This document shows, in pieces, positions 18,081 to 64,000 of a stretch of 64,000 nt of DNA (the stretch's first letter is position 1; the number at the start of each line of letters is the position of its first letter). The stretch is from Scenedesmus sp. PABB004. Lineage: Eukaryota. The notes below the pieces were generated by a model that did not search any database, was not told the origin of the DNA, and saw nothing but the letters and a program-made list of their open reading frames with translations. The stretch covers positions 62,001-126,000 of the forward strand of contig JABVCE010000017.1 in the NCBI GenBank assembly GCA_014905635.1. Reading direction: 5' to 3'. The translations under genes were made by a program, and so were the position numbers.

Positions 18081-18160
<80 letters not shown>

Positions 18161-28361: not shown

Positions 28362-28423
<62 letters not shown>

Positions 28424-45157: not shown

Positions 45158-45239
45158 CGCACTGAGCAGGATTCGAACCTGCGCGGGCGAAGCCCACAAG
45201 ATTTCGAGTCTTGCCCGTTAACCACTCCGGCATCAGTGC
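45158..45239 (-). tRNA. tRNA-Ser(CGA), intronless, long variable arm
   Basis: GCACTGA TGCCGGAGTGGTTAACGGG CAAGA CT-CGA-AA TCTTG TGGGCTTCGCCCGC GCAGG TTCGAAT CCTGC TCAGTGC G. All stems pair, and a T6 Pol III terminator lies at ~45146-45151. Confidence 0.96.
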
Positions 45240-45354: not shown

Positions 45355-46332
45355 CAACATGCGATCCCGCTTGCGGGCTGCTCGGCTGGTCGCACTTGCG
45401 TGTGGCGCGTGGTGTGCCTGGCCGCGCTCGCGGCCATGGACACCGGCCGGCGCGCCGCCAACCTCGCGGCCCTCCAGGCCAAGAGGGAGGCGGACGCCCG
45501 GACGGCCGCGCATGCCCGGCGTGCTGAGCGCGCCGCGGCTGCGGGCCAGCGCCTCATCTCCAGCTTGCTGCCCGCTGCGCCTCCCCCCGAGGCGCAGCAG
45601 CAGCCACAAGCGGCGGTGGCCGAGCGCGAGCGCGCGCAGCGGCTGCAGCAGGCCCAGCAAGCGGCGTGGCGTCGTTCTGAGCCTGGCTGGCAGACTTTGT
45701 TGCGTGCCGCGCGGCCCCGCGACAGTGGTCTGCGCAGGTCCCTGCGCAGCACCCCTTCCTCTGCACCGTGCCGGACGACGCCGACCCACGGGCGGCGCCG
45801 CGCATCTGCTTGCAGGCCGGTGCATGAGGCTCTTTGTGTGTGTGCGGGCGTGTGTGTTTGGTGCTGCCCCGCTGACAATTATGTAGGCCGGTGTGTGTGG
45901 AGTCCCGGGGCACCGCCGGGATGGGCGTGCGTGCGACCGGGGTGGGGGGAGAAGGCGGCGTCGGTCGCGGGGGGCAGCGGCGGGGCGGGGGGCGCGCTGG
46001 GGTTGTTCCAAGTGCTGTTGTTGGTTACACGGCGGGGCCAAGTGCGTTGTTGTTGTTGGTTACACGGCGGGGCCCGGTACGCTCCGGGCGGTTGAGCATC
46101 CCACTTTGGAACGCCTGGCGGGCCTGACCAACTCCCTCCCCGCCACCGCACGTGTCAGTGTCCTCCAAGTGCGTGTTGGTGGTTACACGGCGGGGCCCGG
46201 TACGCTCCGGGCGGTTGAGCGTCCCACTTCGGAACGCCTGGCGGGCCTGACCAACTCTCTCCCCGCCACCGCACGTGTCAGTGTCCTCCTAGTGCGACCA
46301 ACAGAGCAGCCCGCAAACGGGATCGCATGCTG
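45355..46332. mobile_element. Putative non-autonomous TIR DNA transposon with subterminal tandem repeats
   Basis: Left end CATGCGATCCCGCTTGCGGGCTGCTCGGCTGGTCGCACT vs right end AGTGCGACCAACAGAGCAGCCCGCAAACGGGATCGCATG: 39-bp inverted repeat with 3 mismatches. Two ~127-bp tandem units at 46038-46290. No TSD seen. Confidence 0.6.
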
Positions 46333-49300
46333 GCAAGCCGGCGCAGAGCGTGTAGCGAGCATGGCGCGGCCTAGGTGCGCGCAACTCACCAGCAAACCCA
46401 CCTGCACGCCGCCCGCTGGTCTCGATCGCGCGCCGCCGCGCGCGCCAGCCGGGGGCCGTCCTCTCCACGCGGGCGACGGCGCGGGCGCGTGCCGGGCGCG
46501 TGCGCCGGAGCTGCGGCGCCGGCCGCGGGCCCCGCGCGCGCGCGGCGCGGCGGCCCGGCACGGCGGCGCGCGCCGCCGGCGGTGCCCGGCGGGCCTGCGC
46601 GTGGCAGCGCGCTGAGCGGCAGCGGGGGCCGTCCTCTCCACGCGGGCGACGGCGCGGGCGCGTGCCGGGCGCGTGCGCCGGAGCTGCGGCGCCGGCCGCG
46701 GGCCCGCGCGGCGCGCGGCGCGGCGGCCCGGCACGGCGGCGCGCGCCGCCGGCGCTGCCCGGCGGGCCTGCGCGTGGCAGCGCGCCGAGCGGCAGCGGGG
46801 GCCGTCCTCTCCACGCGGGCGACGGCGCGGGCGCGTGCCGGGCGCGTGCGCCGGAGCTGCGGCGCGGCCGCGGGCCCGGCGCGCGCGGCGCGGCGGCCGG
46901 CACGGCGGCGCGCGCCGCCGGCGCTGCCCGGCGGGCCTGCGCGTGGCAGCGCGCCGAGCGGCAGCGGGGCCGTCCTCTCCACGCGGGCGACGGCGCGGGC
47001 GCGTGCCGGGCGCGTGCGCCGGAGCTGCGGCGCCGGCCGCGGGCCCGCGCGCGCGCGGCGCGGCGGCCCGGCACGGCGGCGCGCGCCGCCGGCGGTGCCC
47101 GGCGGGCCTGCGCGTGGCAGCGCGCCGAGCGGCAGCGGGGGCCGTCCTGTCCACGCGGGCGACGGCGCGGGCGCGTGCCGGGCGCGTGCGCCGGAGCTGC
47201 GGCGCCGGCCGCGGGCCGCGCGCGCGCGCGGCGGCGGCCCGGCACGGCGGCGCGCGCCGCCGGCGGTGCCCGGCGGGCCTGCGCGTGGCAGCGCGCCGAG
47301 CGGCAGCGGGGGCCGTCCTCTCCACGCGGGCGACGGCGCGGGCGCGTGCCGGGCGCGTGCGCCGGAGCTGCGGCGCCGGCCGCGGGCCCCGCGCGCGCGG
47401 CGCGGCGGCCCGGCACGGCGGCGCGCGCCGCCGGCGGTGCCCGGCGGGCCTGCGCGTGGCAGCGCGCCGAGCGGCAGCGGGGGCCGTCCTCTCCACGCGG
47501 GCGACGGCGCGGGCGCGTGCCGGGCGCGTGCGCCGGAGCTGCGGCGCCGGCCGCGGGCCCGCGCGGCGCGCGGCGCGGCGGCCCGGCACGGCGGCGCGCG
47601 CCGCCGGCGGTGCCGGCGGGCCTGCGCGTGGCAGCGCGCCGAGCGGCAGCGGGGGCCGTCCTCTCACGCGGGCGACGGCGCGGCGCGGTGCCGGGCGCGT
47701 GCGCCGGAGCTGCGGGCGCCGGCCGGGCCCGCGCGCGCGCGGCGCGGCGGCCCGGCACGGCGGCGCGCGCCGCCGGCGGTGCCCGGCGGGCCTGCGCGTG
47801 GCAGCGCGCCGAGCGGCAGCGGGGGCCGTCCTCTCCACGCGGGCGACGGCGCGGGCGCGTGCCGGGCGCGTGCGCCGGAGCTGCGGCGCCGGCCGCGGGC
47901 CCGCGCGCGCGCGGCGCGGCGGCCCGCACGGCGGCCGCGCGCCGCCGGCGGTGCCCGGCGGGCCTGCGCGTGGCAGCGCGCTGAGCGGCAGCGGGGGCCG
48001 TCCTCTCCACGCGGGCGACGGCGCGGGCGCGTGCCGGGCGCGTGCGCCGGAGCTGCGGCGCCGCCGCGGGCCCGCGCGCGCGCGCGGCGCGGCGGCCCGG
48101 CACGGCGGCGCGCGCCGCCGGCGGTGCCCGGCGGGCTGCGCGTGGCAGCGCGCCGAGCGGCAGCGGGGGCCGTCCTGTCCACGCGGGCGACGGCGCGGGC
48201 GCGTGCCGGGCGCGTGCGCCGGAGCTGCGGCGCCGGCCGCGGGCCCGGCGCGCGCGGCGCGGCGGCCGGCACGGCGGCGCGCGCCGCCGGCGGTGCCCGG
48301 CGGGCCTGCGCGTGGCAGCGCGCTGAGCGGCAGCGGGGCCGTCCTCTCCACGCGGGCGACGGCGCGGGCGCGTGCCGGGCGCGTGCGCCGGAGCTGCGGC
48401 GCCGGCCGCGGGCCCGCGCGCCGCGCGGCGCGGCGGCCCGGCACGGCGGCGCGCGCGCGCCGGCGGTGCCCGGCGGGCCTGCGCGTGGCAGCGCGCCGAG
48501 CGGCAGCGGGGCCGTCCTGTCCACGCGGGCGACGGCGCGGGCGCGTGCCGGGCGCGTGCGCCGGAGCTGCGGCGCCGGCCGCGGGCCCGCGCGCGCGGCG
48601 GCGCGGCGGCCCAGGCACGGCGGCGCGCGCCGCCGGCGGTGCCCGGCGGGCCTGCGCGTGGCAGCCGCTGAGCGGCAGCGGGGGCCGTCCTCTCCACGCG
48701 GGCGCGACGGCGCGGGCGCGTGCCGGGCGCGCGTGCGCCGGCTGCGGCGCGCGGCCGGGGCCCGCGCGCGCGCGGCGCGGCGGCCCCGGCACGGCGGCGC
48801 GCCCGCCGGCGGTGCCCGGCGGGCCTGCGCGTGGCAGCGCGCTGAGCGGCAGCGGGGGCCGTCCTCTCCACGCGGCGACGGCGCGGGCGCGTGCCGGGCG
48901 CGTGCGCCGGAGCTGCGGCGCGGCCGCGGGCCCGCGCGCGCGCGGCGCGGCGGCCCAGCACGGCGGCGCGCGCCGCCGGCGGTGCCCGGCGGGCCTGCGC
49001 GTGGCAGCGCGCTGAGCGGCAGCGGGGGCCGTCCTCTCCACGCGGGCGACGGCGCGGGCGCGTGCCGGGCGCGTGCGCCGGAGCTGCGGCGCCGGCCGCG
49101 GGCCCGCGCGCGCGCGGGCGCGCGGCCCGGCACGGCGGCGCGCGCCGCCGGCGCGGTGCCCGGCGGGCCTGCGCGTGGCAGCGCGCTGAGCGGCAGCGGG
49201 GCCGTCCTCTCCACGCGGGCGACGGCGCGGGCGCGTGCCGGGCGCGTGCGCCGGAGCTGCGGCGCCGGCCGCGGGGCCCGCGCGCGCGCGGCGCGGCGGC

Positions 49301-52300
49301 CCAGCACGGCGGCGCGCGCCGCCGGCGGTGCCCGGCGGGCCTCGCGTGGCAGCGCGCCGAGCGGCAGCGGGGGCCGTCCTCTCCACGCGGGGCGACGGCG
49401 CGGCGCCGTGCCGGGCGCGTGCGCCGGAGCTGCGGCGCCGGCCGCGGGCCGCGCGCGCGCGGCGCGGCGGCGGCCCAGCACGGCGGCGCGCGCCGCCGGC
49501 GGTGCCCGGCGGGCTGCGCGTGGCAGCGCGCTGAGCGGCAGCGGGGGCCGTCCTCTCCACGCGGCGACGGCGCGGGCGCGTGCGGGCGCGTGCGCCGGAG
49601 CTGCGGCGCCGGCCGCGGGCCCGCGCGCGCGCGCGCGGCGGCGGCCCAGCACGGCGGCGCGCGCCGCCGGCGGTGCCCGGCGGGCCTGCGCGTGGCAGCG
49701 CGCTGAGCGGCAGCGGGGGCCGTCCTCTCCACGCGGGCGACGGCGCGGGCGCGTGCCGGGCGGTGCGCCGGAGCTGCGGCGCCGGCCGCGGGCCCGCGCG
49801 CGCGCGGCGCGGCGGCCCGGCACGGCGGCGCGCGCCGCCGGCGGTGCCCGGCGGGCCTGCGCGTGGCAGCGCGCTGAGCGGCAGCGGGGGCCGTCCTCTC
49901 CACGCGGGCGACGGCGCGGGCGCGTGCCGGGCGCGTGCGCCGGAGCTGCGGCGCCGGCCGCGGGCCCCGCGCGCGCGGCGCGGCGGCCCAGCACGGCGGC
50001 GCGCGCCGCCGGCGGTGCCCGGCGGGCCTGCGCGTGGCAGCGCGCTGAGCGGCAGCGGGGGCCGTCCTCTCCACGCGGGCGACGGCGCGGGCGCGTGCCG
50101 GGCGCGTGCGCCGGAGCTGCGGCGCCGGCCGCGGGCCCGCGCGCGCGCGCGCGGCGGCCCAGCACGGCGGCGCGCGCCGCCGGGTGCCGGCGGGCCTGCG
50201 CGTGGCAGCGCGCTGAGCGGCAGCGGGGGCCGTCCTCTCCACGCGGGCGACGGCGCGGGCGCGTGCCGGGCGCGTGCGCCGGAGCTGCGGCGCCGGCCGC
50301 GGGCCCGCGCGCGCGCGGCGCGGCGGCCCAGCACGGCGGCGCGCGCCGCCGGCGGTGCCCGGCGGGCCTGCGCGTGGCAGCGCGCTGAGCGGCAGCGGGG
50401 GCCGTCCTCTCCACGCGGGCGACGGCGCGGGGCGCGTGCCGGGCGCGTGCGCCGGAGCTGCGGCGCCGGCCGCGGCCCGCGCGCGCGCGGCGCGGCGGCC
50501 CGGCACGGCGGCGCGCGCCGCCGGCGGTGCCCGGCGGGCCTGCGCGTGGCAGCGCGCTGAGCGGCAGCGGGGGCCGTCCTCTCCACGCGGGCGACGGCGC
50601 GGGCGCGTGCCGGGGCGCGTGCGCCGGAGCTGCGGCGCCGGCCGCGGGCCCGCGGCGCGCGGCGCGGCGGCCCAGCACGGCGGCGCGCGCCGCCGGCGGT
50701 GCCCGGCGGGCCTGCGCGTGGCAGCGCGCTGAGCGGCAGCGGGGGCCGTCCTCTCCACGCGGGCGACGGCGCGGGCGCGTGCCGGGCGCGTGCGCCGGAG
50801 CTGCGGCGCCGGCCGCGGCCCGCGCGCGCGCGGCGCGGCGGCCCGGCACGGCGGCGCGCGCCGCCGGCGGTGCCCGGCGGGCCTGCGCGTGGCAGCGCGC
50901 TGAGCGGCAGCGGGGGCCGTCCTCTCCACGCGGGCGACGGCGCGGGCGCGTGCCGGGCGCGTGCGCCGGAGCTGCGGCGCCGGCCGCGGGCCCGCGCGCG
51001 CGCGGCGCGGCGGCCCAGCACGCGGCGGCGCGCGCCGGCGGTGCCCGGCGGGCCTGCGCGTGGCAGCGCGCTGAGCGGCAGCGGGGGCCGTCCTCTCCAC
51101 GCGGGCGACGGCGCGGGCGCGTGCCGGGCGCGTGCGCCGGAGCTGCGGCGCCGGCCGCGGGCCCGCGCGCGCGCGCGGCGGCGGCGGCCCGGCACGGCGG
51201 CGCGCGCCGCCGGCGGTGCCCGGCGGGCCTGCGCGTGGCAGCGCGCTGAGCGGCAGCGGGGGCCGTCCTCTCCACGCGGGCGACGGCGCGGGCGCGTGCC
51301 GGGCGCGTGCGCCGGAGCTGCGGCGCCGGCCGCGGGCCGCGCGCGCGCGGCGGCGCGGCGGCCCGGCACGGCGGCGCGCGCCGCCGGCGGTGCCGGCGGG
51401 CCTGCGCGTGGCAGCGCGCTGAGCGGCAGCGGGGGCCGTCCTCTCCACGCGGGCGACGGCGCGGGCGCGTGCCGGGCGCGTGCGCCGGAGCTGCGGCGCG
51501 GCCGCGGGCCCGCGCGCGCGCGGCGCGGCGGCCCAGCACGGCGGCGCGCGCCGCCGGCGGTGCCCGGCGGGCCTGCGCGTGGCAGCGCGCTGAGCGGCAG
51601 CGGGGGCCGTCCTCTCCACGCGGGCGACGGCGCGGGCGCGTGCCGGCGCGTGCGCCGGAGCTGCGGCGCCGGCCGCGGGCCGCGCGCGCGCGGCGCGGCG
51701 GCCCAGCACGGCGGCGCGCGCCGCCGGCGGTGCCCGGCGGGCCTGCGCGTGGCAGCGCGCTGAGCGGCAGCGGGGGCCGTCCTCTCCACGCGGCGACGGC
51801 GCGGGCGCGTGCCGGGCGCGTGCGCCGGAGCTGCGGCGCCGGCCGCGGGCCCGCGCGCGCGCGGCGCGGCGGCCCGGCACGGCGGCGCGCGCCGCGGCGG
51901 TGCCCGGCGGGCCTGCGCGTGGCAGCGCGCTGAGCGGCAGCGGGGGCCGTCCTCTCCACGCGGGCGACGGCGCGGGCGCGTGCCGGGCGCGTGCGCCGGA
52001 GCTGCGGCGCCGGCCGCGGGCCCGCGCGCGCGCGCGGCGGCGGCCCGCGGCACGGCGGCGCGCGCCGCCGGCGGTGCCCGGCGGGCCTGCGCGTGGCAGC
52101 GCGCTGAGCGGCAGCGGGGGCCGTCCTCTCCACGCGGGCGACGGCGCGGGCGCGTGCCGGGCGCGTGCGCCGGAGCTGCGGCGCCGGCCGGGGCCCGCGC
52201 GCGGCGGCGCGGCGGCCCGGCACGGCGGCGCGCGCCGCCGGCGGTGCCCGGCGGGCCTGCGCGTGGCAGCGCGCTGAGCGGCAGCGGGGGCCGTCCTCTC

Positions 52301-55300
52301 CACGCGGGCGACGGCGCGGGCGCGTGCCGGGCGCGTGCGCCGGAGCTGCGGCGCCGGCCGCGGGCCCCCGCGCGCGCGCGGCGCGGCGGCCCGGCACGGC
52401 GGCGCGCGCCGCCGGCGGTGCCCGGCGGGCCTGCGCGTGGCAGCGCGCTGAGCGGCAGCGGGGGCCGTCCTCTCCACGCGGGCGACGGCGCGGGCGCGTG
52501 CCGGGCGCGTGCGCCGGAGCTGCGGCGCGGCCGCGGGCCCGCGCGCGCGCGGCGCGGCGGCCCAGCACGGCGGCGCGCCCGCCGGCGGTGCCCGGCGGGC
52601 CTGCGCGTGGCAGCGCGCTGAGCGGCAGCGGGGGCCGTCCTCTCCACGCGGGCGACGGCGCGGGCGCGTGCCGGCGCGTGCGCCGGAGCTGCGGCGCCGG
52701 CCGCGGCCCGGCGCCGCGGCGGCGCGGCGGCCCAGCACGGCGGCGCGCGCGCCGCCGGCGGTGCCCGGCGGGCCTGCGCGTGGCAGCAGCGCGCTGAGCG
52801 GCAGCGGGGGCCGTCCTCTCCACGCGGGCGACGGCGCGGGCGCGTGCCGGGCGCGTGCGCCGGAGCTGCGGCGCCGGCCGCGGGCCCGCGCGCGCGCGGC
52901 GCGGCGGCCCAGCACGGCGGCGCGCGCCGCCGCGGTGCCCGGCGGGCCTGCGCGTGGCAGCGCGCTGAGCGGCAGCGGGGGCCGTCCTCTCCACGCGGGC
53001 GACGGCGCGGGCGCGTGCCGGCGCGTGCGCCGGAGCTGCGGCGCGGCCGCGGGCCCGCGCGCGCGCGGCGCGGCGGCCCGGCACGGCGGCGCGCGCCGCC
53101 GGCGGTGCCCGGCGGGCCTGCGCGTGGCAGCGCGCTGAGCGGCAGCGGGGGCCGTCCTCTCCACGCGGGCGACGGCGCGGGCGCGTGCCGGGCGCGTGCG
53201 CCGGAGCTGCGGCGCCGGCCGCGGGCCGCGCGCGCGCGGCGCGCGGCGGCCCAGCACGGCGGCGCGCGCCGCCGGCGGTGCCCGGCGGGCCTGCGCGTGG
53301 CAGCGCGCTGAGCGGCAGCGGGGGCCGTCCTCTCCACGCGGGCGACGGCGCGGGGCGCGCCGGGCGCGTGCGCCGGAGCTGCGGCGCCGGCCGCGGGCCC
53401 GCGCGCGCGCGCGGCGCGGCGGCCCAGCACGGCGGCGCGCGCCGCCGGCGGTGCCCGGCGGGCCTGCGCGTGGCAGCGCGCTGAGCGGCAGCGGGGGCCG
53501 TCCTCTCCACGCGGGCGACGGCGCGGGCGCGTGCCGGGCGCGTGCGCCGGAGCTGCGGCGCCGGCCGCGGGCCGCGGCGCGCGCGGCGCGGCGGCCCAGC
53601 ACGGCGGCGCGCGCCGCGCGCCGCCGGCGGTGCCCGGCGGGCCTGCGCGTGCAGCGCGCTGAGCGCAGCGGGGGCCGTCCTCTCCACGCGGGCGACGGCG
53701 CGGGCGCGTGCGGGCGCGTGCGCCGGAGCTGCGGCGCCGGCCGCGGCCCGCGCGCGCGGGCGCGGCGGCCCGGCACGGCGCGCGCGCCGCCGGCGGTGCC
53801 CGGCGGGCCTGCGCGTGGCAGCGCGCTGAGCGGCAGCGGGGGCCGTCCTCTCCACGCGGGCGACGGCGCGGGCGCGTGCCGGGCGCGTGCGCCGGAGCTG
53901 CGGCGCCGGCCGCGGGCCCGCGCGCGCGCGGCGCGGCGGCCCAGCACGGCGGCGCGCGCCGCCGGCGGTGCCCGGCGGGCCTGCGCGTGGCAGCGCGCTG
54001 AGCGGCAGCGGGGGCCGTCCTCTCCACGCGGGCGACGGCGCGGGCGCGTGCCGGGCGCGTGCGCCGGAGCTGCGGCGCCGGCCGCGGGCCCGCGCGCGCG
54101 GGCGGCGGCCCAGGCACGGCGGCGCGCGCCGCCGGCGGTGCCCGGCGGGCCTGCGCGTGGCAGCGCGCTGAGCGGCAGCGGGGCCGTCCTCTCCACGCGG
54201 GCGACGGCGCGGGCGCGTGCCGGGCGCGTGCGCCGGAGCTGCGGCGCCGGCCGCGGGCCCGCGCGCGCGCGGCGCGGCGGCCCAGCACGGCGGCGCGCGC
54301 CGCCGGCGGTGCCCGGCGGGCCTGCGCGTGGCAGCGCGCTGAGCGGCAGCGGGGGCCGTCCTCTCCACGCGGGCGACGGCGCGGGCGCGTGCCGGGCGCG
54401 TGCGCCGGAGCTGCGGCGCCGGCGGCCCGCGCGCGCGCGGCGCGGCGGCCAGCACGGCGGCGCGCGCCGCCGGCGGTGCCCGGCGGGCCTGCGCGTGGCA
54501 GCGCGCTGACGGCAGCGGGGCCGTCCTCTCCACGCGGGCGACGGCGCGGGCGCGTGCCGGCGCGTGCGCGGAGCTGCGGCGCCGGCCGCGGGCCCGCGCG
54601 CGCGCGGCGCGGCGGCCCAGCACGGCGGCGCGCGCCGCCGGCGGTGCCCGGCGGGCCTGCGCGTGGCAGCGCGCTGAGCGGCAGCGGGGGCCGTCCTCTC
54701 CACGCGGGCGACGGCGCCGGGCGCGTGCCGGGCGCGTGCGCCGGAGCTGCGGCGCCGGCCGCGGGCCCGCGCGCCGCGCGGCGCGGCGGCCCGCACGGCG
54801 GCGCGCGCCGCCGGCGGTGCCCGGCGGGCCTGCGCGTGGCAGCGCGCTGAGCGGCAGCGGGGGCCGTCCTCTCCACGCGGGCGACGGCGCGGGGCGCGTG
54901 CCGGGCGCGTGCGCCGGAGCTGCGGCGCCGGCCGCGGGCCCGCGCGCGCCGGCGCGGCGGCCGCACGGCGGCGCGCGCCGCCGGCGGTGCCCGGCGGGCC
55001 TGCGCGTGGCAGCGCGCTGAGCGGCAGCGGGGGCCGTCCTCTCCACGCGGGCGACGGCGCGGGCGCGTGCCGGGCGCGTGCGCCGGAGCTGCGGCGCCGC
55101 CGCGGGCCCGCGCGCGCGCGGCGCGGCGGCCAGCACGGCGGCGCGCGCGCCGCCGGCGGTGCCCGGCGGGCCTGCGCGTGGCAGCGCGCTGAGCGGCAGC
55201 GGGGGCCGTCCTCTCCACGCGGGCGACGGCGCGGGCGCGTGCCGGGCGCGTGCGCCGGAGCTGCGGCGCCGGCCGCGGGCCCGGCGCGCGCGGCGCGGCG

Positions 55301-56222
55301 GCCCACACGGCGGCGCGCGCCGCGGCGTGCCCGGCGGGCCTGGCGCGTGCAGCGGCGCTGAGCGGCAGCGGGGGCCGTCCTCTCCACGCGGGCGACGGCG
55401 CGGGCGCGTGCCGGGCGCGTGCGCCGGAGCTGCGGCGCCGGCCGCGGGCCCGCGCGCGCGCGGCGCGGCGGCCCAGCACGGCGGCGCGCGCCGCCGGCGG
55501 TGCCCGGCGGGCCTGCGCGTGGCAGCGCGCTGAGCGGCAGCGGGGGCCGTCCTCTCCACGCGGGCGACGGCGCGGGCGCGTGCCGGGCGCGTGCGCCGGA
55601 GCTGCGGCGCCGGCCGCGGGCCCGCCGCGCGCGCGGCGCGGCGGCCCGGCACGGCGGCGCGCGCCGCCGGCGGTGCCCGGCGGGCCTGCGCGTGGCAGCG
55701 CCTGAGCGGCAGCGGGGGCCGTCCTCTCCACGCGGGCGACGGCGCGGGCGCGTGCCGGGCGCGTGCGCCGGAGCTGCGGCGCCGGCCGCGGGCCCCGCGC
55801 GCGCGCGGCGCGGCGGCCCAGCACGGCGGCGCGCGCCGCCGGCGGTGCCCGGCGGGCCTGCGCGTGGCAGCGCGCCGAGCGGCAGCGGGGGCCGTCCTCT
55901 CCACGCGGGCGACGGCGCGGGCGCGTGCCGGGCGCGTGCGCCGGAGCTGCGGCGCCGGCCGCGGGCCCGCGCGCCGCGCGGCGCGGCGGCCCGGCACGGC
56001 GGCGCGCGCCGCCGGCGGTGCCCGGCGGGCCTGCGCGTGGCAGCGCGCTGAGCGGGCAGCGGGGGCCGTCCTCTCCACGCGGGCGACGGCGCGGGCGCGT
56101 GCCGGGCGCGTGCGCCGGAGCTGCGGCGCCGGCCGCGGGCCCGCGCGCGCGCGGCGCGGCGGCCCGGCACGGCGGCGCGCGCCGCCGGCGGTGCCCGGCG
56201 GGCCTGCGCGTGGCAGCGCGCT

Positions 56223-56294
56223 TTCAATGGGCTGCCCCTGGGCCTCGGTCCTTGTCTGGTCACCCGTTGTAACAAAAAAAAAAAAAAAAAAAAA
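56223..56294 (+). mobile_element. Ultra-short LINE 3'-end insertion with poly(A)
   Basis: Last ~50 nt of the LINE plus A21. TSD AGCGCGCT. Confidence 0.9.
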
Positions 56295-56380
56295 GCGCGC
56301 TGAGCGGCAGCGGGGGCCGTCCTCTCCACGCGGGCGACGGCGCGGGCGCGTGCCGGGCGCGTGCGCCGGAGCTTCGGCGC

Positions 56381-56455
56381 TTTTTTCAGTGGGCTGCCCC
56401 TGGGCCTCGGTCCTTGTTTGGTCACCCATTGTAACAAAAAAAAAAAAAAAAAAAA
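56381..56455 (+). mobile_element. Ultra-short LINE 3'-end insertion with poly(A)
   Basis: Last ~55 nt plus A20. TSD AGCT(T/G)CGGCGC. Confidence 0.9.
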
Positions 56456-57091
56456 GCTGCGGCGCCGGCCGCGGGCCCGCGCGCGCGCGGCGCGGCGGCC
56501 CAGCACGGCGGCGCGCGCCGCCGGCGGTGCCCGGCGGGCCTGCGCGTGGCAGCGCGCTGAGCGGCAGCGGGGCCGTCCTCTCCACGCGGGGCGACGGCGC
56601 GGGCGCGTGCCGGGCGCGTGCGCCGGAGCTGCGGCGGCCGCGGGCCGCGCGCGCGCGGCGCGGCGCCCGGCACGGCGGCGCGCGCCGCCGGCGGTGCCGG
56701 CGGGCCTGCGCGTGGCAGCGCGCTGAGCGGCAGCGGGGGCCGTCCTCTCCACGCGGGCGACGGCGCGGGCGCGTGCCGGGCGCGTGCGCCGGAGCTGCGG
56801 CGCCGGCCGCGGGCCCGCGCGCGCGCGGCGCGGCGGCCCGGCACGGCGGCGCGCGCCGCCGCGGTGCCCGGCGGGCCTGCGCGTGGCAGCGCGCTGAGCG
56901 GCAGCGGGGGCCGTCCTCTCCACGCGGGCGACGGCGCGCGGGCGCGTGCCGGGCGCGTGCGCCGGAGCTGCGGCGCCGGCCGCGGCCCGCGCCGCGCGCG
57001 GCGCGGCGGCCCAGCACGGCGGCGCGCCGCCGCCGGCGGTGCCCGGCGGGCCTGCGCGTGGCAGCGCGCTGAGCGGCAGCGGGGGCCGTCC

Positions 57092-60000
57092 AGCAGGCGG
57101 ACGCTCTGGAGGCGGTATGGGAAGAGTGCGGCGAGGGGCCCAGCCGCTGGTTCCACCGCCTGGGCCGCGCGCCGGGCGGCGCGCAGCAATTTCACGCGCT
57201 CGCCCGCCCGGGCCAGCCCGCCGTGCCGCTTACCTCCAGGGCAGGCGTCCAGGAGGGCGGCCGCATCATCGCCGACTTCTTCGACGCGGACGTGCCGGGC
57301 GGCATGTTCGGCGTCCGGCACCGACCGACCGCCAGCAGCAGGACTGCATGCTGGACGCGCTGGACCGGCAGCTCTCGGCAGCCGAGCAGCGGGCCTGCCG
57401 CGGGCAGGACCCCGTGGGGCTGCTCACGTTCGCCGAGGCGGCGGCGGCGCTGGACAGCCTGCCGCGCGGCGCGGCGCCGGGCAGCGACGGCCTCACCTGC
57501 GAGGCCTACGCGGCCCTGTGGGAGGTGCTGGGCGAGCCGCTCGTCCAAGCCTTCAACTATCACTACCTCAACCAGGCCGCCGGCGCGCCGCAGCTCGCGG
57601 CGACGCAGCGGCTCGGGCTCATCACGCTGATCCACAAGGGCGGCCAGCCGCGCGAGGCGGTCAGCAGCTACCGCCCCATCACGCTGCTCAACGCAGACAC
57701 CAAGATCGCAGCCAAGGCCATCGTGCAGCGGCTCGCGCCCGCGCTCGGCTCCATCGTCGACGGCACGCAGACGGCGTTTGTGCCGGGCCGGGACATCGCC
57801 GACAACGTGCTCATGCACCTGGAGGCGATCGACCACGCGCGCGAGACGCGCGCGCCGGGCTGCCTGCTGTTCCTCGACTTCGCCAAGGCCTACGACCGCC
57901 TCGACCGCGGCTGGCTGTTCAGGTGCCTCGCGCGCATGGGCCTGCCCGACGCAACCACGCGCTGGGTCCGCCTGCTGCTCGCAGGCACGCGGCGCGCGCG
58001 TCGCCTTCAACGGCGGCCATGTCAGCCGCGAGTTCAGCGTGGCGTCGGGCTGCGCGCAGGGCAGCCCGCTCAGCCCGCTGCTGTATGTGCTGGCGGCGCA
58101 GCCGCTGGCGGCCATGTGCCGGCGCGTGCAGCGGCAGCCCGGTTTTGCCAGCCTGCGCTGCCCGGCGGCGCAGGGCCGGCGCCCTGCTGCCACCAGCACG
58201 CAGACGACACCACCCTGCACGCAGCGTCAGTGGAGAGCGCCAAGCGGCTGCTGGACGGCGCCGTCGCGCCGTTCTGCCTGGCCAGCGGCGCGCAGCTCAA
58301 CCTGGCCAAGTGCAAGGGCATGCTGCTGGGCAACCACCCGGCGCTGCAGCTGCAGCCGGATGGCAGCGGGCAGCTGGTCGAGTGCAGCACGGGCGTGTGC
58401 TTCCCGGACACAGAGCAGGCGCCGATCAGGCACCTGGGCGTGCTGCTCTCTGCCACCGGCGTCGAGCGGCACGCGGCGCAGCTTTACCGCGAGCGGCTGC
58501 GCACCATCACCTGCCGCATCGCGCACTGGTCGCGGTACGCGCTCACGCGCGCCGGGCCGCCGGCACGTTGCGCGCCAGGTGCTCGCGGCCTGCGTGGGCT
58601 GGCACGCGCAGTTTGTGCCGGTGCCGGCCGACCTCCTGCGCCTCATCCAGCGGCGCGTCACCGCCTACATCGTCGGCAACTGGTGCATCCGCGAGAGCGA
58701 CAACCGCATTATCAGGCAGGTTCCGCGGGCGGCCATCGCGTGCCTGCCCGCGAGCATGGGCGGCGAGGCGCAGGTCGACGTCGCGGCCTTCACCACGGCA
58801 ATGCTGGCCAAGACGGCCGCCAGGCTGCTGCACCCGGTGGGGGCGGCCTGGAAGCCACCCGCGGCGGCGCGCTTCGCGCGCGCGTTGCCTGGCCGGGGCA
58901 CCGCCGCCCTCGTGCAGGGCACCGCGCTGGAGCTGCGGGCGCAGCTGCCGTGGCGGTGGGGCGCGATCGCCTGCGCGTTTGCGGCTCTCGGCGTGCACCG
59001 GGTGATCCCCCACGGCAGCATGACCGTGGAGCAGATCAGGGTTGAGGCCCTGGTGGGCAACTGCAGCGTCGGCGCGGCCCTGGGCGGCGCGCGCATCGCG
59101 TCGCTCGAGGACCTGCCCGCGGAGCTGCGCAGCGACAGCCTCGGGCAGGCGGCGCCGCGCCTGCCGTGGCGGCCGCCGCCGACGGCGTCGTCATGCCGGG
59201 TGAGTGGCAGCAGGCACTCGCGCGCAGCGGGCCGAGCGCGCCGGGTTGGCAGGCGCTGCGGCCCAGCGCGGCGCCGCCGTCGCCGGGCGGCGGCGTGGTG
59301 CAGCAGCCCCAGCAGCCGCTGGCGGCGCTGCCGGTGGAGCAGCCGCCGCAGCCGCCGCCGCCGCCGCCGCCCGCCGTGCGGTGGGTACGGCGGTGGGCGC
59401 TGGGCGCGGCAGCGGCGAGCTTCTTTTTTTTTTTTTTTTTGTTACAATGGGTGACTAGACAAGGACCGAGCCCAGGGCGGCGAGCTTCTTCGAGGTGGGG
59501 CCTGACAGCAGGCTCCGCACGCCGAGCCCCGCCCGAGATAGTCGCGGCGGGGGGTGGGAGGACTGCTGCGTGGTGGACGCGGCGCAGGCGCCGCGGCCAG
59601 CGGCGGGCGCGCAGCGCGCGGCGGCCGGAGCGCCCGGGCAGCGGCGCCGGCGGAGCAGCCGGAGATGCACAGCAGGGCGCGGCGATGGTGCCTCGTGGGC
59701 TTCTGGCCTGACGTCCGCGTCGACCCCTCCGTGTGGGGGCTTGGGCACGCGGCCACGGTCATGCAGTTTACGGTGCGCGGCGCGACCCTGCGGCTGCTGC
59801 AGCTGCGCTGCGCGCGCGAGGTCACGCCGGCAGGGGGCTGGACGCCCGGCGTTGGCTGCGTGCCGGGCCTCTGGCGCGCCGGCTACGGCCAGGCCTGCCC
59901 GGCCAGCGCCATCGCGCGGCGGGAGGCGGGCCAGAAGCGCAGCTGGGCGGAGCGGCAGCGAGCCGAGACGCCAGACCCGGAGCCTGGGCTGCCGGCGTGG

Positions 60001-60969
60001 CAGAAAGTCTCGCCCCCGCGGCGCCACGTCATGGAGCGCGTCGGGCCGGCGGCGGCCGCTGCCGCCGCGGCGCGGCGCGAGGAGCATGAGCAGCGGCGGG
60101 AGCAGCAGCTGGAGTAGCGCAGGACCCTGGTTCAGGAGCCGGCGGCCAACGACCTCGTCGACCCGCTCACTGGTGCGACTGCGCCGCGCGCGCCGGCGAG
60201 CGCGCGGAGCCGCCCGCCTGGGTCGCCTGCTACGCGCGCGCGCAGCAGGCGCGCATGCCGCGCGCCCTGCGACACTTTGGCTGGAGCCTGCTGCACGGCG
60301 GGGTGCGCGTCAGCGGCGACAGGGTCTTCTCTTACCAGCGCGCGGCGCCGGAGCTGGCGGAGCTGGCGTGCCCGCACCCGCTCTGCCGCGCGCAGCAGCA
60401 GCCGCCGCTGGAGACGCTCGGCCACGTCCTCGGCGGATGCCCCGTGGCGGCGGCGGTGCTGCAGTGGTTTGCTCACCTCTGGGCGCGGCTGCAGCCGGGC
60501 TTCCCGCGCGCCGCGCCCCGCCCAGGGTGATGCTGGCGGACGACTTTGCCAGGTCGGGCGTCGCGCCGGAGCTGCAGCAGCTCTGGACGCACCTCCGCCT
60601 GCTGCTGCTGCGCGCCCTGCCTGCGCCGCGCGCGCGCGGCACGGCGGCGGCCAGCCCGGGCACGCGCCTGTGGCGGCGATTCGCATCTTCGTGTACTCGG
60701 TGCGCGACGCAGTCGTGCTGGATTGGCGTAAGGCAGCGATGGACGTGCGCGCGCTGGCGGGCGTGCCGCGCTCCTGGCTGTCGGGCTCCGGCAAGGAGCT
60801 CACTCGGGCAGATTTCGAACGCCGGTGGTGCCACCGAGGGGTCATCGCGCGCACGGGCCAGCACGGGGGCCGCTTCACAATGGAGTTCCGGCTCACCGCA
60901 GCGGGCGTGCGGGCTGCCGGCGCTGCCGGCGCCGGCGCGGCGCTGGCCCCGCCGGCGGCGCAGGACCCC

Positions 60970-61003
<34 letters not shown>

Positions 61004-61736
61004 AGCGCGGCGGCTAGCTGCAGGGGCCGGGGGGTCCGCGGCCGGGCTTGCTGCGACCCCGGCTGGCTGCGTGTCGCGCCTCTTCTGCAGCGTGCAAGGT
61101 TGGGCGGTGTCCGCCCGTGCCGCGGGGCTGGTGTCTGCGTGTTGGCGTCGCGCGGCGAGGGGGCTGCTGCCGATGGGGCCGGCCCCTGGCACCGCCGGCG
61201 TGTTTGGCGGCTGCACGCGCTCCGTGCGCGGCGGCTTGGCGTGCTGCCTGCCCGGTGGGGCGGCTTTCTCATCGGTGCGCGGCTTTCTCAGGGGTTTTTG
61301 CAGCAAAGCCAACTGTTGCCCCCTGGTGTGTGCGTGTGTCGTCGCGCGGCGCGGGGGCTGATGCCGCTGAGGCCGGCCCCTGCCGCCGCCAGCGTGGATG
61401 GCGTTTGCGCGTGATCTCTGCGCGGAGGCTTGGGGCCGGTGCACCTCGCTGCACCGATGCCCGGTGCGGCTCGCCGCACCGGAAGGGGGGTGTGCGGCCT
61501 GATTTGCTGCTGCCCCTTTGATTGCGGGGCATCACCTGGTCTCCTTGGGCGCCCGTTGGGCGTTGGCCTCTGGCTGTGCCGTTGGGTGATGTGTGTGCCC
61601 CCTCTCGGGGGGCGCCGGGGCGCGGTTTTTCACGAGGGGTTGCTGCGCTCTTCCCGTTGGAGCTTTTTTCAATGGGCTGCCCCTGGGCCTCGGTCCTTGT
61701 CTGGTCACCCATTGTAAAAAAAAAAAAAAAAAAAAA
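57092..61736 (+). mobile_element. 5'-truncated L1-clade non-LTR retrotransposon (RT + C-terminal zinc finger, frameshifted), 3'UTR and poly(A)
   Basis: WEECGEGPSRWFHR, APGSDGL, ITLIHKG..YRPITLLNADTKI, QTAFVPGRDIADN, LDFAKAYDRL, GCAQGSPLSPLLY, QHADDTT, LNLAKC, RHLGV, WSLLHG, CPHPLC..ETLGHVLGGCP. Stop at 61017, then TGT+A21 tail. No endonuclease or ORF1 present. Confidence 0.93.
59424..59476 (-). mobile_element. Antisense ultra-short LINE tail nested in the LINE
   Basis: T17-GTTACAATGGGTGAC... TSD GCGGCGAGCTTCTT. Confidence 0.9.
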
Positions 61737-61761
61737 GCGCGCTGAGCGGCAGCGGGGGCCG

Positions 61762-61827
61762 TTTTTTTTTTTTTTTTGTTACAATGGGTGACCAGACAAG
61801 GACCGAGGCCCAGGGGCAGCCCACTGA
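61762..61827 (-). mobile_element. Antisense ultra-short LINE tail in satellite
   Basis: Poly(T)-GTTACAATGGG...CCCACTGA. TSD AGCGGGGGCCGT. Confidence 0.9.
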
Positions 61828-62540
61828 AGCGGGGGCCGTCCTCTCCACGCGGGCGACGGCGCGGGCGCGTGCCGGGCGCGTGCGCCGGAGCTGCGGCGCC
61901 GGCCGCGGGCCCGCGCGCGCGCGCGCGCGGCGGCCCGGCACGGCGGCGCGCGCCGCCGGCGGTGCCCGGCGGGCCTGCGCGTGGCAGCGCGCTGAGCGGC
62001 AGCGGGGGCCGTCCTCTCCACGCGGGCGACGGCGCGGGCGCGTGCCGGGCGCGTGCGCCGGAGCTGCGGCGCGGCCGCGGGCCGCGCGCGCGCGCGGCGC
62101 GGCGGCCCGGCACGGCGCGCCGGCGGCGCGCGCCGCCGCGTGCGGCGGGCCTGCGCGTGGCAGCGCGCTGAGCGGCAGCGGGGGCCGTCCTCTCCACGCG
62201 GGCGACGGCGCGGGCGCGTGCCGGGCGCGTGCGCCGGAGCTGCGGCGCCGGCCGCGGGCCCGCGCGCGCGCGGCGCGCGGCGGCCCGGCACGGCGGCGCG
62301 CGCCGCCGGCGGTGCCCGGCGGGCCTGCGCGTGGCAGCGCGCTGAGCGGCAGCGGGGGCCGTCCTCTCCACGCGGGCGACGGCGCGGGCGCGTGCCGGGC
62401 GCGTGCGCCGGAGCTGCGGCGCCGGCCGCGGGCCCGCGCGCGCGCGGCGCGGCGGCCCGGCACGGCGGCGCGCGCCGCCGGCGGTGCCCGGCGGGCCTGC
62501 GCGTGGCAGCGCGCTGAGCGGCAGCGGGGGCCGTCCTCTC
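61828..62540. repeat. Continuation of the 172-bp satellite (~4 monomers)
   Basis: Same monomer and orientation as 46451-57091. Confidence 0.97.
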
Positions 62541-63441
62541 TTTTTTTTTTTTTTTTTTTGTTACAATGGGTGACCAGACAAGGACCGCGCTGGAGCTGCG
62601 GGCGCAGCTGCCGTGGCGGTGGGGCGCGATCGCCTGCGCGTTTGCGGCTCTCGGCGTGCACCGGGTGATCCCCCACGGCAGCATGACCGTGGAGCAGATC
62701 AGGGTGGAGGCCCTGGTTTTTTTTTGGTTTTTTTTTGTTACAACGGGTGACCAGACAAGGACCGAGGCCCAGGGGCAGCCCAAGGACCGAGGCCCTGGTG
62801 GGCAACTGCAGCGTCGGCGCGGCCCTGGGCGGCGCGCGCATCGCGTCGCTCGAGGACCTGCCCGCGGAGCTGCGCAGCGACAGCCTCGGGCAGGCGGCGC
62901 CGCGCCTGCCGTGGCGGCCGGCCGCCGACGGCGTCGTCATGCCGGGTGAGTGGCAGCAGGCACTCCGCGCGCAGCGGGCCGAGCGCGCCGGGTTGGCAGG
63001 CGCTGGGCCCAGCGCGGCGCCGCCGTCGCCGGGCGGCGGCGTGGTGCAGCAGCCCAGCAGCCGCTGGCGGCGCTGCCGGTGGAGCAGCCGCCGCAGCCCG
63101 CCGCCGCCGCCGCCCGCCGTGCGGTGGGTACGGCGGTGGGCGCTGGGCGCGGGCAGCGGCGAGCTTCTCAAGGTGGGCCTGACAGCAGGCTCCGCACCGC
63201 CGAGCCCCCGCCCGAGATAGTCGCGGCGGGGGGGTGGGAGGACTGCTGCGTGGTGGACGCGGCAGGCGCCGCGGCCAGCGGGCGGGCGCGCAGCGCGCGG
63301 CGGCCGGAGCGCCCGGGGCAGCGGCGCCGGCGGAGCAGCCGGAGATGCACAGCAGGGCGCGGCGATGGTGCCTCGTGGGCTTCTGGCCTGACGTCCGCGT
63401 CGACCCCTCCGTGTGGGGGTTTGGGCACGCGGCCACGGTCA
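62541..63441. mobile_element. Antisense LINE tail (62541-62587) fused to a sense internal LINE fragment (matches ~58921-59761)
   Basis: T19-GTTACAATGGGTGACCAGACAAGG-ACCG-CGCTGGAGCTG... The fragment lacks the 59424 insertion, so it is an independent copy. Confidence 0.88.
62717..62788 (-). mobile_element. Antisense ultra-short LINE tail nested in the second LINE fragment
   Basis: Interrupted poly(T) plus tail. TSD GAGGCCCTGGT. Confidence 0.88.
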
Positions 63442-64000
63442 TTTTGTTTTTTTTTTTATGTTACAATGGGTGACCAGACAAAGACCGAGGCCCAGGGGCA
63501 GCCCACTGAAAAAAACTCCAACGGGAAGAGCGCAGCAACCCCTCGTGAAAAACCGCGCCCCGGCGCCCCCCGAGAGGGGGCCCACACATCACCCAACGGC
63601 ACAGCCAGAGGCCAACGCCCAACGGGCGCCCAAGGAGACCAGGTGATGCCCCGCAATCAAAGGGGCAGCAGCAGATCAGGCCGCACACCCCCCTTCCGGT
63701 ACGGCGAGCCGCACCGGGCATCGGTGCAGCGAGGTGCACCGGCTCCAAGCCTCCGCGCAGAGATCACGCGCAAACGCCATCCACGCTGGCGGCGGCAGGG
63801 GCCGGCCTCAGCGGCATCAGCCCCCGCGCCGCGCGACGACACACGCACACACCAGGGGGCAGCAGTTGGCTTTGCTGCAAAAACCCCTGAGAAAGCCGCG
63901 CACCGACGAGAAAGCCGCCCCACCGGGCAGGCAGCACGCCAAGCCCGCCGCGCACGGAGCGCGTGCAGCCGCCAACACGCCGGCCGGCGCCAGGGGCCGG
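63442..64000 (-). mobile_element. Antisense LINE copy (3'UTR) running off the window end
   Basis: Reverse complement of ~61180-61715 preceded by degenerate poly(T). Confidence 0.92.

Follow-up and report, generated by a model that had tools for sequence, protein, structure and literature searches.

The stretch of DNA analysed here, hereafter the window, comprises 64,000 nucleotides of a 795,618-bp contig of Scenedesmus sp. PABB004. The genome of this alga has been described as 39.8 Mb in 77 contigs, with 78.5% GC, 7,092 genes and 1.31% repeats (PMC12571836, Table 1), and its gene density is about one gene per 5.6 kb. A coding signal, genes with a FAST_1 domain and a tRNA gene occur in the left part of the window, which extends over 46 kb or more. 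The period-3 coding signal is last seen at 43.2–44.1 kb, and the tRNA gene, a tRNA-Ser, lies at 45158–45239. When the 66 long ORFs between position 1 and 46.6 kb were compared with Pfam, only two FAST_1 genes scored above the cut-off, together with one sub-threshold KAP match, so that the gene content of this flank is poorly defined. An exact look-up of 10 ATG-to-stop ORFs of the left flank in the protein collection searched returned none. The flank also contains two inverted repeats that are 99% identical. The first 600 bases of the window are unique sequence, and no telomere-repeat array was found in the window, in which a search allowing up to two mismatches gave only three isolated 14-mers.

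To the right of the tRNA gene, the character of the DNA changes. Tandem Repeats Finder (TRF) detected a main satellite array (Table 1) of 57.0 copies at period 171 (96% matches, score 17924), and two further pieces, of which the last ends at 62540. The GC content is 0.90 over 48–56 kb, compared with 0.73–0.82 in the remaining window. From 45 monomers excised between a fixed anchor, a consensus of 172 bp was derived, with 90.1% GC and only 7 A and 10 T. The monomers diverge from it by a mean of 1.7 substitutions (about 1%) and 2.3 indel columns, and the anchor-to-anchor spacing is 166–176 bp. This is the structure expected of a centromeric satellite, i.e. a homogeneous tandem array with a monomer of roughly nucleosome size (172 bp, 57 copies).

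The units at the left edge of the array, at about 46.4–48.9 kb, form a subtype recognizable from their variant pattern. No strict higher-order repeat was found in the satellite, as two variant positions occur in blocks and in mixture without a strict period, and neither dyad symmetry nor hairpins are in excess in the monomer (z = +1.85; 195 of 200 shuffles fold equally well or better). A BLASTN search with a satellite dimer against the rest of the window revealed no source of the satellite in the LINE or in the flanks, but only compositional GC-rich matches, the longer of which (about 85–150 bp) reach at most 74–77% identity. In scans of JGI metagenomes, neither the satellite core nor the 3' end of the LINE described below gave any match. 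Among 31 PABB004-linked proteins scanned, the satellite was found outside the window only in the gene model P0130, located on the same contig beyond the LINE cluster; because the monomer contains no ATG, gene models would seldom take in the satellite, and its absence from the other proteins carries little weight either way. A 54-residue tandem repeat of P0255, a protein encoded on another contig, was considered as a possible copy of this satellite, and was rejected because it had no match in the window with standard statistics.

Table 1. Features of the satellite and LINE island in the window (TSD, target-site duplication).
Feature	Position	Strand	Description	Evidence
Main satellite array	46442..56222		Head-to-tail, single orientation, 171-172 bp monomer	TRF, spacing, consensus
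LINE insertion A	56223..56294	+	Last ~51 bp + A21; TSD GCGCGCT (7-8 bp)	
Satellite piece between insertions A and B	56295..56380			
LINE insertion B	56381..56454	+	3' end + poly(A); TSD 11 bp, 1 mismatch	
Satellite	56455..57091		3.7 copies	TRF
4.6-kb LINE copy	57092..61737	+	5'-truncated; TSD 27-28 bp of satellite	Pfam RVT_1, PDB match
LINE insertion C	59425..59479	-	3' end nested in 4.6-kb copy; TSD 10-13 bp	
Satellite, 25 bp	61738..61762		Right-hand TSD copy of 4.6-kb LINE	
LINE insertion D	61763..61827	-	3' end + poly(T); TSD 12 bp	
Satellite	61828..62541		4.1 copies; orientation as main array	TRF
LINE insertion E	62542..62588	-	47 bp of 3' end + poly(T)	
Second LINE copy, internal fragment	62584..63442	+	Corresponds to 58921-59762 of 4.6-kb copy, 96-99% identity	BLASTN
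LINE insertion F	62719..62790	-	3' end nested in second copy; TSD 10-11 bp	
LINE insertion G	63443..64000	-	Poly(T) + 3' UTR, 97% identical to 4.6-kb copy; nested in second copy	

The right end of the visible satellite is interrupted by copies of a LINE. These were located with a motif of 27 bases taken from its 3' end, allowing up to three mismatches and using 100 shuffles as a control. Eight matches were found in the window, all within 56247–63486 and each with at most one mismatch (shuffles, 0.00). Each of the eight 3' ends adjoins a poly(A) or poly(T) run, and all eight copies are 5'-truncated, with a visible span in the window from 47 bp to 4.6 kb. In positions 1–46400, BLASTN with the 4.6-kb copy gave only five weak low-complexity matches of no more than 117 bp. 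The copies in the window share 94–99% DNA identity (BLASTN), which, together with their long intact poly(A) tails, indicates that the insertions are young. Target-site duplications (7–28 bp) accompany six of the eight; none is visible at insertion E, the 5' side of which adjoins another LINE fragment, and insertion G extends past the end of the window. Six different target sites were found among the seven readable insertions, only insertion A and the 4.6-kb copy sharing one. The duplicated target can begin with A in seven of the eight cases, and this fits priming by poly(A) where the nicked strand has one of its few T residues. Three insertions (C, F and G) lie inside other LINE copies, the second copy being broken up by F and G. 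A junction of poly(A) followed by LINE is also present in the gene model P0131, on another contig.

The 4.6-kb copy contains a reverse transcriptase (RT) domain, a C-terminal Cys/His motif, a 3' UTR of about 0.7 kb and a poly(A) tail; it lacks an endonuclease, and its frame breaks near 57995 and 58190. This copy underlies the NCBI gene model P0001, which is 100% identical to it. The RVT_1 domain was recognized by Pfam in the window copy (E = 3.6e-20) and in full-length relatives (1.6e-27 to 5.7e-28). The best PDB match of the LINE is human L1 ORF2p (E = 4.4e-23, or 5.4e-14 for the window copy), followed by R2 (4.2e-9); since L1 and R2 are the only families among the PDB matches, these values do not separate L1 from Tx1, RTE or other clades. 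An APE endonuclease N-terminal to the RT is absent from the truncated window copies and present in copies of the same family on other contigs: Exo_endo_phos was found in the full-length copy P0255 (29.2 bits, cut-off 24.5), and the endonuclease region of P0124 aligns to the PF03372 domain of P0005. The family thus combines a non-LTR RT, an APE and the marks of target-primed reverse transcription (poly(A), 5' truncation, TSDs) that define the APE-type L1 superfamily, and, judged by its sequence, the LINE is L1-like. The best Chlamydomonas reinhardtii proteins are P0087 and P0091, with 41–42% identity over a 211-residue RT query region; for P0091, identity is 33% over the APE–RT alignment. Look-up of the LINE protein in the ESM Atlas returned only generic APE+RT clusters that were of no taxonomic use.

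Tx1-group LINEs also combine APE and RT and insert into repeated DNA. They are target-specific, and a Tx1-type element would be expected to use one defined target; this possibility was discarded in view of the six different sites mentioned above, the insertions sharing only the A at the start of the TSD. It should be noted that the NCBI name 'transposon TX1 protein' is an automatic label and not a phylogenetic placement.

These data agree with much of the initial annotation, which had been made from the letters of the window. It had described a satellite of about 172 bp invaded by one LINE family of the L1 type, with at least eight poly(A)-tailed insertions in the last 8 kb and none before, and had pointed to the self-nesting of Zepp. 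All eight insertions indeed fall between 56.2 and 64 kb, their 3' ends belong to the same family with L1-type features, the RVT_1 domain, the APE of the relatives and the best solved match bear out the L1 assignment, and nesting is seen in three cases.

Information on the DNA to the right of the window comes from P0130 (HT031_004825), the accession directly following P0001. This gene model encodes, in order, a UDPGP domain, a 2OG-Fe(II) oxygenase, about 160 residues of satellite read in frames of the reverse strand (residues 850–1010, with 154 8-mers in common) and a LINE RT. The host parts of P0130 (UDPGP and 2OG oxygenase) are absent from the window, and insertion G is probably its LINE part. 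The succession from host genes to satellite to LINE implies that the island is bounded by genes on both sides. The statement that genes stop at about 45 kb therefore holds only roughly for the left side, as far as the coding signal and the tRNA-Ser gene are concerned, and not beyond the window, where genes resume. Likewise, the suggestion that LINE density rises towards a core on the right had to be abandoned, as the next gene model already returns to host genes and leaves no room for a large core. The island would end roughly 4–6 kb past the window, i.e. at about 68–70 kb in window coordinates. The window thus appears to contain the left two-thirds of a small, gene-bounded island that starts at 46.4 kb and is at least 22 kb long, at most 15 gene models away from the contig start. 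Both P0001 and P0130 are artefacts of the public annotation, in which LINE or satellite DNA has been translated as host protein.

The distribution of the LINE in the rest of the genome was evaluated by a census of annotated gene models from three length-limited protein searches, to which short unannotated LINE fragments are invisible and which is incomplete (5 of the 20 members of one cluster are missing among the models listed). LINE gene models were found on at least 12 of the 77 contigs, and LINE or Copia models on at least 17. On all eight contigs with two or more listed transposable element (TE) models, their accessions lie within five of each other, which suggests one island per contig. 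Even dispersal of the LINE had been named by the initial annotation as an argument against a centromere; among the listed gene models (12 contigs), the LINE instead forms one tight group per contig. A complete Ty1/Copia element, P0242, adjoins the LINE on six contigs, while no Copia was found within the window. Locus tags run in contig-size order in seven of seven cases. On this basis, the island of the 4.85 Mb contig (HT031_000361 to about 363, of about 865 expected genes) is internal, about 2 Mb from either end, and that of an 843,176-bp contig is at most 16 gene models from the contig end. An attempt to derive contig boundaries from accession arithmetic was dropped, because the numbers did not follow a contiguous-block model.

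In our opinion, the best reading of the locus is that the satellite and LINE island is the candidate centromere of this chromosome, a proposal that we consider evenly poised between right and wrong. The base layer is the homogeneous 172-bp, 90% GC satellite, into which target-primed reverse transcription has placed at least eight copies of a young L1-type LINE. Every chromosome would carry one such island, being or marking its regional centromere, with the satellite as substrate. The LINE may have built up there by homing, either to the chromatin of the centromere or to copies of itself; alternatively, or in addition, insertions elsewhere may have been purged from the gene-dense genome. The wider proposition, that the islands are functional centromeres on a 172-bp, 90% GC satellite, inhabited by a young, homing Zepp-style L1 and a Copia partner, is in our view rather unlikely. 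Against a centromere, it must be said that the monomer has no dyad excess and the array no strict higher-order repeat, that the satellite has been found on this contig only (in the window and the 31 proteins scanned), and that islands as close to contig ends as the two mentioned above (≤15 and ≤16 gene models) are unexpected for randomly placed centromeres.

The strongest competing explanation, somewhat doubtful but to be taken seriously, is that the island is an ordinary heterochromatic array serving as a non-centromeric safe haven for TEs that are purged elsewhere, the centromere lying in another place or being of another type, e.g. a short non-repetitive region. With about one gene per 5.6 kb and 1.31% repeats, such a genome would offer few tolerated landing sites, and a LINE with no strict sequence target (six sites among seven readable) would persist only there. 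There are precedents: the 184-bp array on chromosome 11 of Chlamydomonas is a large, nucleosome-sized satellite reported as non-centromeric in a 2025 CENH3 preprint, and Auxenochlorella, another streamlined genome, is described without repeat-rich centromere candidates (PMC12636532). The restriction of the satellite to this contig in the 31 proteins scanned would also fit. On the other hand, selection alone would not yield exactly one island per contig, while a single tight TE group is seen on all eight multi-model contigs, as in the centromere calls of Coccomyxa and Chlamydomonas; moreover, the insertions are young and nevertheless all lie within the island.

That the island is a subtelomeric repeat domain, comparable with the Zepp cluster of Chlorella vulgaris or the Sultan arrays of Chlamydomonas, appears improbable. 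Zepp is said to have been first described in a telomeric region of Chlorella. Higashiyama et al. (1997) are cited by Craig et al. for the nesting mechanism. The positions of the islands of the 795,618-bp and 843,176-bp contigs, close to contig ends, would agree with this view. A subtelomeric domain should lie next to a telomere array, and ordinary genes should be absent on its distal side. Instead, the window has no telomere array and begins with unique sequence, the left side has coding DNA with FAST_1 genes and the tRNA-Ser gene, the right side has UDPGP and 2OG oxygenase genes, the TE cluster of the largest contig is internal, and multi-model contigs have one cluster rather than two terminal ones; the subtelomeric alternative of the initial annotation was consequently set aside. 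Even less credible is an assembly artefact, i.e. a collapsed or chimeric repeat region of a long-read assembly. In its favour, the monomers differ mainly by 1-bp indels (2.3 columns per 172 bp), as is usual in long reads before polishing, noise of this kind may also account for the LINE frame breaks, and the left flank holds the two 99%-identical inverted repeats. Mis-joins, however, would not be expected to produce matching TSDs at six of eight insertions and an unbroken satellite phase; unique genes flank the island on both sides, and an element of the same structure recurs on 12 contigs.

The candidate centromere is of interest in view of what is known of this group. The characterized green-algal centromeres (Chlamydomonas, Coccomyxa, Chlorella and Chromochloris) are described as TE islands that measure tens to hundreds of kb (PMC8226300, PMC11005252, PMC12636532, PMC9940879), and tandem satellites as absent from those of Chlorella and minor in most of those of Chlamydomonas. 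Craig et al. recommended searching new contiguous chlorophyte assemblies for Zepp-like clusters as centromere markers. PABB004 is such a case, with the satellite as substrate and both L1 and Copia in the islands. Should CENH3 map here, the result would bear on whether satellites arrive early or late in centromere evolution, would mean that a centromere is possible on 90% GC DNA, and would offer chromosome engineers very small candidate centromeres in a group of algae with industrial relevance. Should it not, the islands would still illustrate cleanly how a streamlined genome can restrict its retrotransposons to a safe haven. If the wider proposition were true, these would be the first green-algal centromeres described as built on a satellite, and on one unusually GC-rich for a centromeric satellite; they would link the centromere types of Chlamydomonas (L1) and Chromochloris (Copia), and, at about 25 kb, would be small enough to be tested as components of artificial algal chromosomes.

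Outside the algae, Chang et al. (2019) are said to have described in Drosophila melanogaster centromere islands rich in one non-LTR retroelement and embedded in satellite arrays, which reportedly differ from the present island in their Jockey-clade LINE, simple AT-rich satellites and megabase scale. Among green algae, each chromosome of Coccomyxa and Chlamydomonas has its centromere marked by a single cluster of Zepp or ZeppL (PMC8226300). ZeppL-1_cRei of C. reinhardtii (Craig et al., 2021, 2023; Liu et al., 2025) is likewise an APE+RT L1-type LINE, kept off the chromosome arms in one cluster per chromosome, a distribution with which the present one is comparable from annotated models only. 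As here, ZeppL clusters consist of nested, 5'-truncated copies along with other TEs. They span 51–320 kb, against at least 22 kb in PABB004, and ZeppL makes up about 60% of them with satellite as a minor part, whereas here satellite accounts for about half of the visible island, with the LINE inside it. CENH3 binding is established at the Chlamydomonas clusters, whereas the present island is a candidate proposed from its sequence. The gene ids of P0087 and P0091, the best C. reinhardtii matches, were found in none of the publications searched for a link to ZeppL. According to the v6 genome paper (PMC9940879), satellites flank the ZeppL clusters on some Chlamydomonas chromosomes, so that the architecture, which the initial annotation had thought possibly undescribed, is not wholly so.

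Zepp of Coccomyxa subellipsoidea C-169 (Blanc et al., 2012; Higashiyama et al., 1997; both via PMC8226300) also inhabits a compact genome, in one small cluster per chromosome, and its self-nesting creates arrays rich in 3' ends (PMC8226300). No satellite substrate is reported for it in PMC8226300, and its host belongs to a different class, the Trebouxiophyceae. Closer to PABB004 is Chromochloris zofingiensis, of the same order (Sphaeropleales), the centromeres of which are rich in, and marked by, Copia elements (Roth et al., 2017); the Copia-rich centromeres of Chromochloris and Chlorella are reported without tandem satellites (Roth et al., 2017; Wang et al., 2024). For Chlorella, a dip in methylation within an otherwise methylated island has also been reported. 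With the Copia element P0242 beside the LINE on six contigs, the PABB004 islands unite both TE types known from algal centromeres.

The satellite of about 172 bp described in the initial annotation was recovered in the window by Tandem Repeats Finder as a main array (period 171, 57.0 copies, 96% matches, score 17924) and two further pieces, listed in the table below with the other features. A consensus built from 45 cleanly delimited, aligned units was 172 bp long with 90.1% GC (7 A and 10 T), and GC content reached 0.90 over 48-56 kb, against 0.73-0.82 for the remaining window. A fixed 14-base anchor had 60 plus-strand matches in 46451-64000, mostly at a spacing of 166-176 bp, and a single minus-strand match, at the distant position 2466; the units therefore share one orientation. 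Averaged over the 45 monomers, divergence from the consensus was 1.7 substitutions and 2.3 indel columns per unit. The frequent 1-bp indels between monomers look like long-read assembly noise, so that the actual homogeneity of the satellite is probably higher. Across 46442-57091, single-base indels are the main monomer variation, suggesting an unpolished long-read assembly.

Immediately outside the left edge of the array, two copies of a 123-bp unit (95% identity) are directly preceded by repeats of a shorter, related motif, and the sole Rfam/ARAGORN match in the window, a tRNA-Ser gene, lies 1.2 kb from the edge. Further left are two inverted repeats. In both arms of the first lies a FAST_1-domain gene that contains tandem repeats of 114 bp (38 residues), comparable to octotricopeptide-repeat proteins; the structure arose by a recent inverted duplication of the gene or else reflects a fold-back in the assembly. 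The second was returned as two pairs adjoining each other, each 99% complementary, and its long ORFs gave no Pfam domain.

Features of the window (TSD, target-site duplication)
Feature	Position	Strand	Host	Details
Inverted repeat, 2186 nt	5765-7950 and 12168-14353			arms 99% complementary, 4.2 kb apart
Inverted repeat, about 2.3 kb	16886-19158 and 27364-29603			8-10 kb between arms
tRNA-Ser (anticodon CGA)	45158-45239	-		
123-bp unit, two copies	46051-46296			
Main satellite array	46442-56222			
Edge subtype of satellite	46.4-48.9 kb			leftmost units, about a dozen
Insertion A	56223-56294	+	satellite	TSD 7-8 bp
Insertion B	56381-56454	+	satellite	TSD 11 bp, 1 mismatch
Satellite, further piece	56455-57091			
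4.6-kb LINE copy	57092-61737	+	satellite	TSD 27-28 bp
Insertion C	59425-59479	-	4.6-kb copy	TSD 10-13 bp
112-bp direct repeat	61128-61239 and 61323-61433		LINE 3' UTR	82% identity
Insertion D	61763-61827	-	satellite	TSD 12 bp
Satellite, further piece	61828-62540			
Insertion E	62542-62588	-	satellite/second-copy junction	no TSD seen
Second LINE copy (internal fragment)	62584-63442			
Insertion F	62719-62790	-	second LINE copy	TSD 10-11 bp
Insertion G	63443 onward	-	second LINE copy	other end off window

Copies of the LINE were located by a 27-base 3'-end motif, with up to 3 mismatches permitted. There were eight matches, all within 56247-63486 and with at most one mismatch each, and 0.00 in shuffled sequence; a homopolymer of A or T, about 16-23 bases long, adjoins each match. 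This bears out the count of at least eight poly(A)-tailed copies of one family in the last 8 kb. Their absence from the preceding part of the window also held, as the motif had no match there and just five weak low-complexity matches appeared when the longest copy was compared with 1-46400 by BLASTN. Identity among the copies inside the window is 94-99% (BLASTN). TSDs were seen on 6 of the 8 insertions, and after removal of one duplication copy the satellite phase is unbroken across them, which indicates insertion into a pre-existing array. A single target sequence was ruled out, since the insertions lie at differing sites. In 7 of 8, A is possible as the first base of the duplicated target (on the element's sense strand), far above chance for such GC-rich DNA, which fits poly(A) priming at a T in the nicked strand. 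The need for an A at the target, in a monomer with only 17 A/T positions, would account for insertion A and the 4.6-kb copy sharing one site.

The 4.6-kb copy encodes a reverse transcriptase (RT; Pfam RVT_1, E 3.6e-20) and, as read from its translation, a C-terminal Cys/His motif; it lacks the endonuclease through 5' truncation. The frame is broken near 57995 and near 58190, possibly by assembly noise, as copies on other contigs read through. Protein searches retrieved near-identical NCBI proteins named 'transposon TX1 protein [Scenedesmus sp. PABB004]'. One of them, P0001, is 100% identical to the window copy and is the gene model made from it, an artefact that splices over the frame breaks and the nested insertion. 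Longer copies elsewhere in the genome (P0124, P0250 and P0255; LINE part up to about 2300 residues) reveal the complete architecture. A long N-terminal region without a Pfam match comes first, then an apurinic-type endonuclease (APE; seen as PF03372 at 29.2 bits in P0255 and through alignment with a relative that bears PF03372), the RT and the Cys/His tail. The best PDB match of the LINE protein was human L1 ORF2p (E 4.4e-23), with R2 proteins far weaker (4.2e-9), and the window copy likewise placed L1 ORF2p ahead of R2. Of the proposed L1-clade assignment, what stands is that the element is an L1-type LINE with APE and RT; L1 proper and Tx1 are not separable by PDB matches, whose LINEs are L1 and R2 only. 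The direct repeat of its 3' UTR is visible in insertion G too.

The island was further expected to grow denser in LINEs toward a core to the right of the window, and this is contradicted by P0130 (HT031_004825), whose accession directly follows that of P0001 on the same contig. It is an artefact gene model in which two host genes, with a UTP-glucose-1-phosphate uridylyltransferase domain (residues 26-437) and a 2OG-Fe(II) oxygenase domain (745-857), are fused first to about 160 residues that translate the satellite in its reverse-strand frames (residues 850-1010, with 154 8-mers in common) and then to LINE RT (1107-1376). Because nothing in the window matches its first ~890 residues, which precede the satellite-derived part, the model must sit immediately beyond the right end, encoded on the minus strand; this fits the minus-oriented insertion G and gives the right-hand satellite the orientation that it has in the window. 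Should G be the LINE part of P0130, its 5' end would lie near 67.8 kb, with satellite and then ordinary genes beyond. The island would thus be at least 22 kb long, reaching from about 46.4 kb to 68-70 kb, with a central LINE cluster and satellite on either flank. The 39.8 Mb assembly of Scenedesmus sp. PABB004 (77 contigs, N50 1.3 Mb, 7,092 genes, 78.5% GC) has 1.31% repeats (PMC12571836, Table 1), so that a repeat island exceeding 20 kb is conspicuous there.

The distribution census used annotated proteins as a proxy, namely gene models within the searched length ranges, short unannotated fragments falling outside; 15 of the 20 members of one protein cluster were listed, and all figures hold among the models listed. 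LINE-bearing models occur on at least 12 contigs (4,853,734; 1,269,045; 1,005,304; 843,176; 795,618, the window's own; 784,350; 504,318; 304,485; 87,414; 38,216; 19,129 and 10,967 bp). Copia models, sharing an NCBI name and a 90% cluster, adjoin the LINE on 6 contigs and occur without it on 5 more, giving at least 17 contigs with either element; four of these sequences were read directly, the others assigned by name and cluster membership. P0242 is a complete Ty1/Copia polyprotein (gag, integrase and RVT_2 domains). The Ty1/Copia element beside the LINE on those 6 contigs, elsewhere in the genome (P0240-P0255), is complete and highly conserved; in P0255 a tandem repeat comes after the Copia C-terminus, and this repeat, whose period is about 54 residues, bears no relation to the 172-bp satellite. 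In all eight contigs with two or more listed models, the accessions lie within 5 of each other, pointing to one tight cluster per contig. Locus tags increase with decreasing contig size (7/7 cases) and are therefore numbered contig by contig. On the 4.85 Mb contig, where average density predicts some 865 genes, the cluster at HT031_000361 to about 363 lies deep inside.

As to structure, the evidence is good that a young L1-type LINE has colonised a satellite array by target-primed reverse transcription, and that the island is one of many single TE islands. That it is also a centromere is the leading reading, at about even odds. This reading draws on the single island of each contig with several listed TE models, on the internal island of the largest contig and on the close match to the features behind algal centromere calls: those of Coccomyxa and Chlamydomonas were called from such one-cluster-per-chromosome features (PMC8226300, section 10), the latter call being later backed by CENH3 data (2025 preprint). 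Caution is advised by several findings: the satellite has come to light on this contig alone, two of the islands are close to contig ends, and in the monomer there is neither an excess of dyad symmetry nor, with its two truly polymorphic positions followed, a strict higher-order period, the array interior being a mixture of two variants. The same preprint describes huge non-centromeric satellites of similar unit length in Chlamydomonas. A non-centromeric, safe-haven island is less probable than a centromere here but plausible. A subtelomere is improbable, although the island lies at most 15 gene models from the contig start (HT031_004808 being on the next-larger contig, the first tag of the window's contig falls between 4809 and 4825); the first 600 bases of the window are unique sequence free of telomere repeats. 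That the island is an assembly artefact is very improbable, given an array whose phase survives the insertions, even with noisy single bases.

Among papers mentioning strain PABB004 in their full text, none was found with the strain in its title, and for Scenedesmus/Tetradesmus centromeres we found just a passing figure-legend mention (S. obliquus UTEX 3031). The best Chlamydomonas matches to the LINE were P0087 and P0091 (41-42% identity over a 211-residue RT query region; 33% for P0091 across the APE-RT alignment). P0091, on an unplaced 55-kb scaffold, begins with translated poly(A) and continues with internal sequence of the element, which hints at a nested copy of ZeppL, the Zepp-like LINE of Chlamydomonas centromeres. 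For green algae, TE-island centromeres with Zepp-like L1 clusters are well documented, and in Chlamydomonas some ZeppL clusters are known to have satellites next to them (PMC9940879). What would be new is the satellite as main substrate, with its 90% GC, the pairing of L1 with Copia in a member of Sphaeropleales, and an island as small as this one; the Copia partner of the LINE echoes Chromochloris and Chlorella (PMC11005252).
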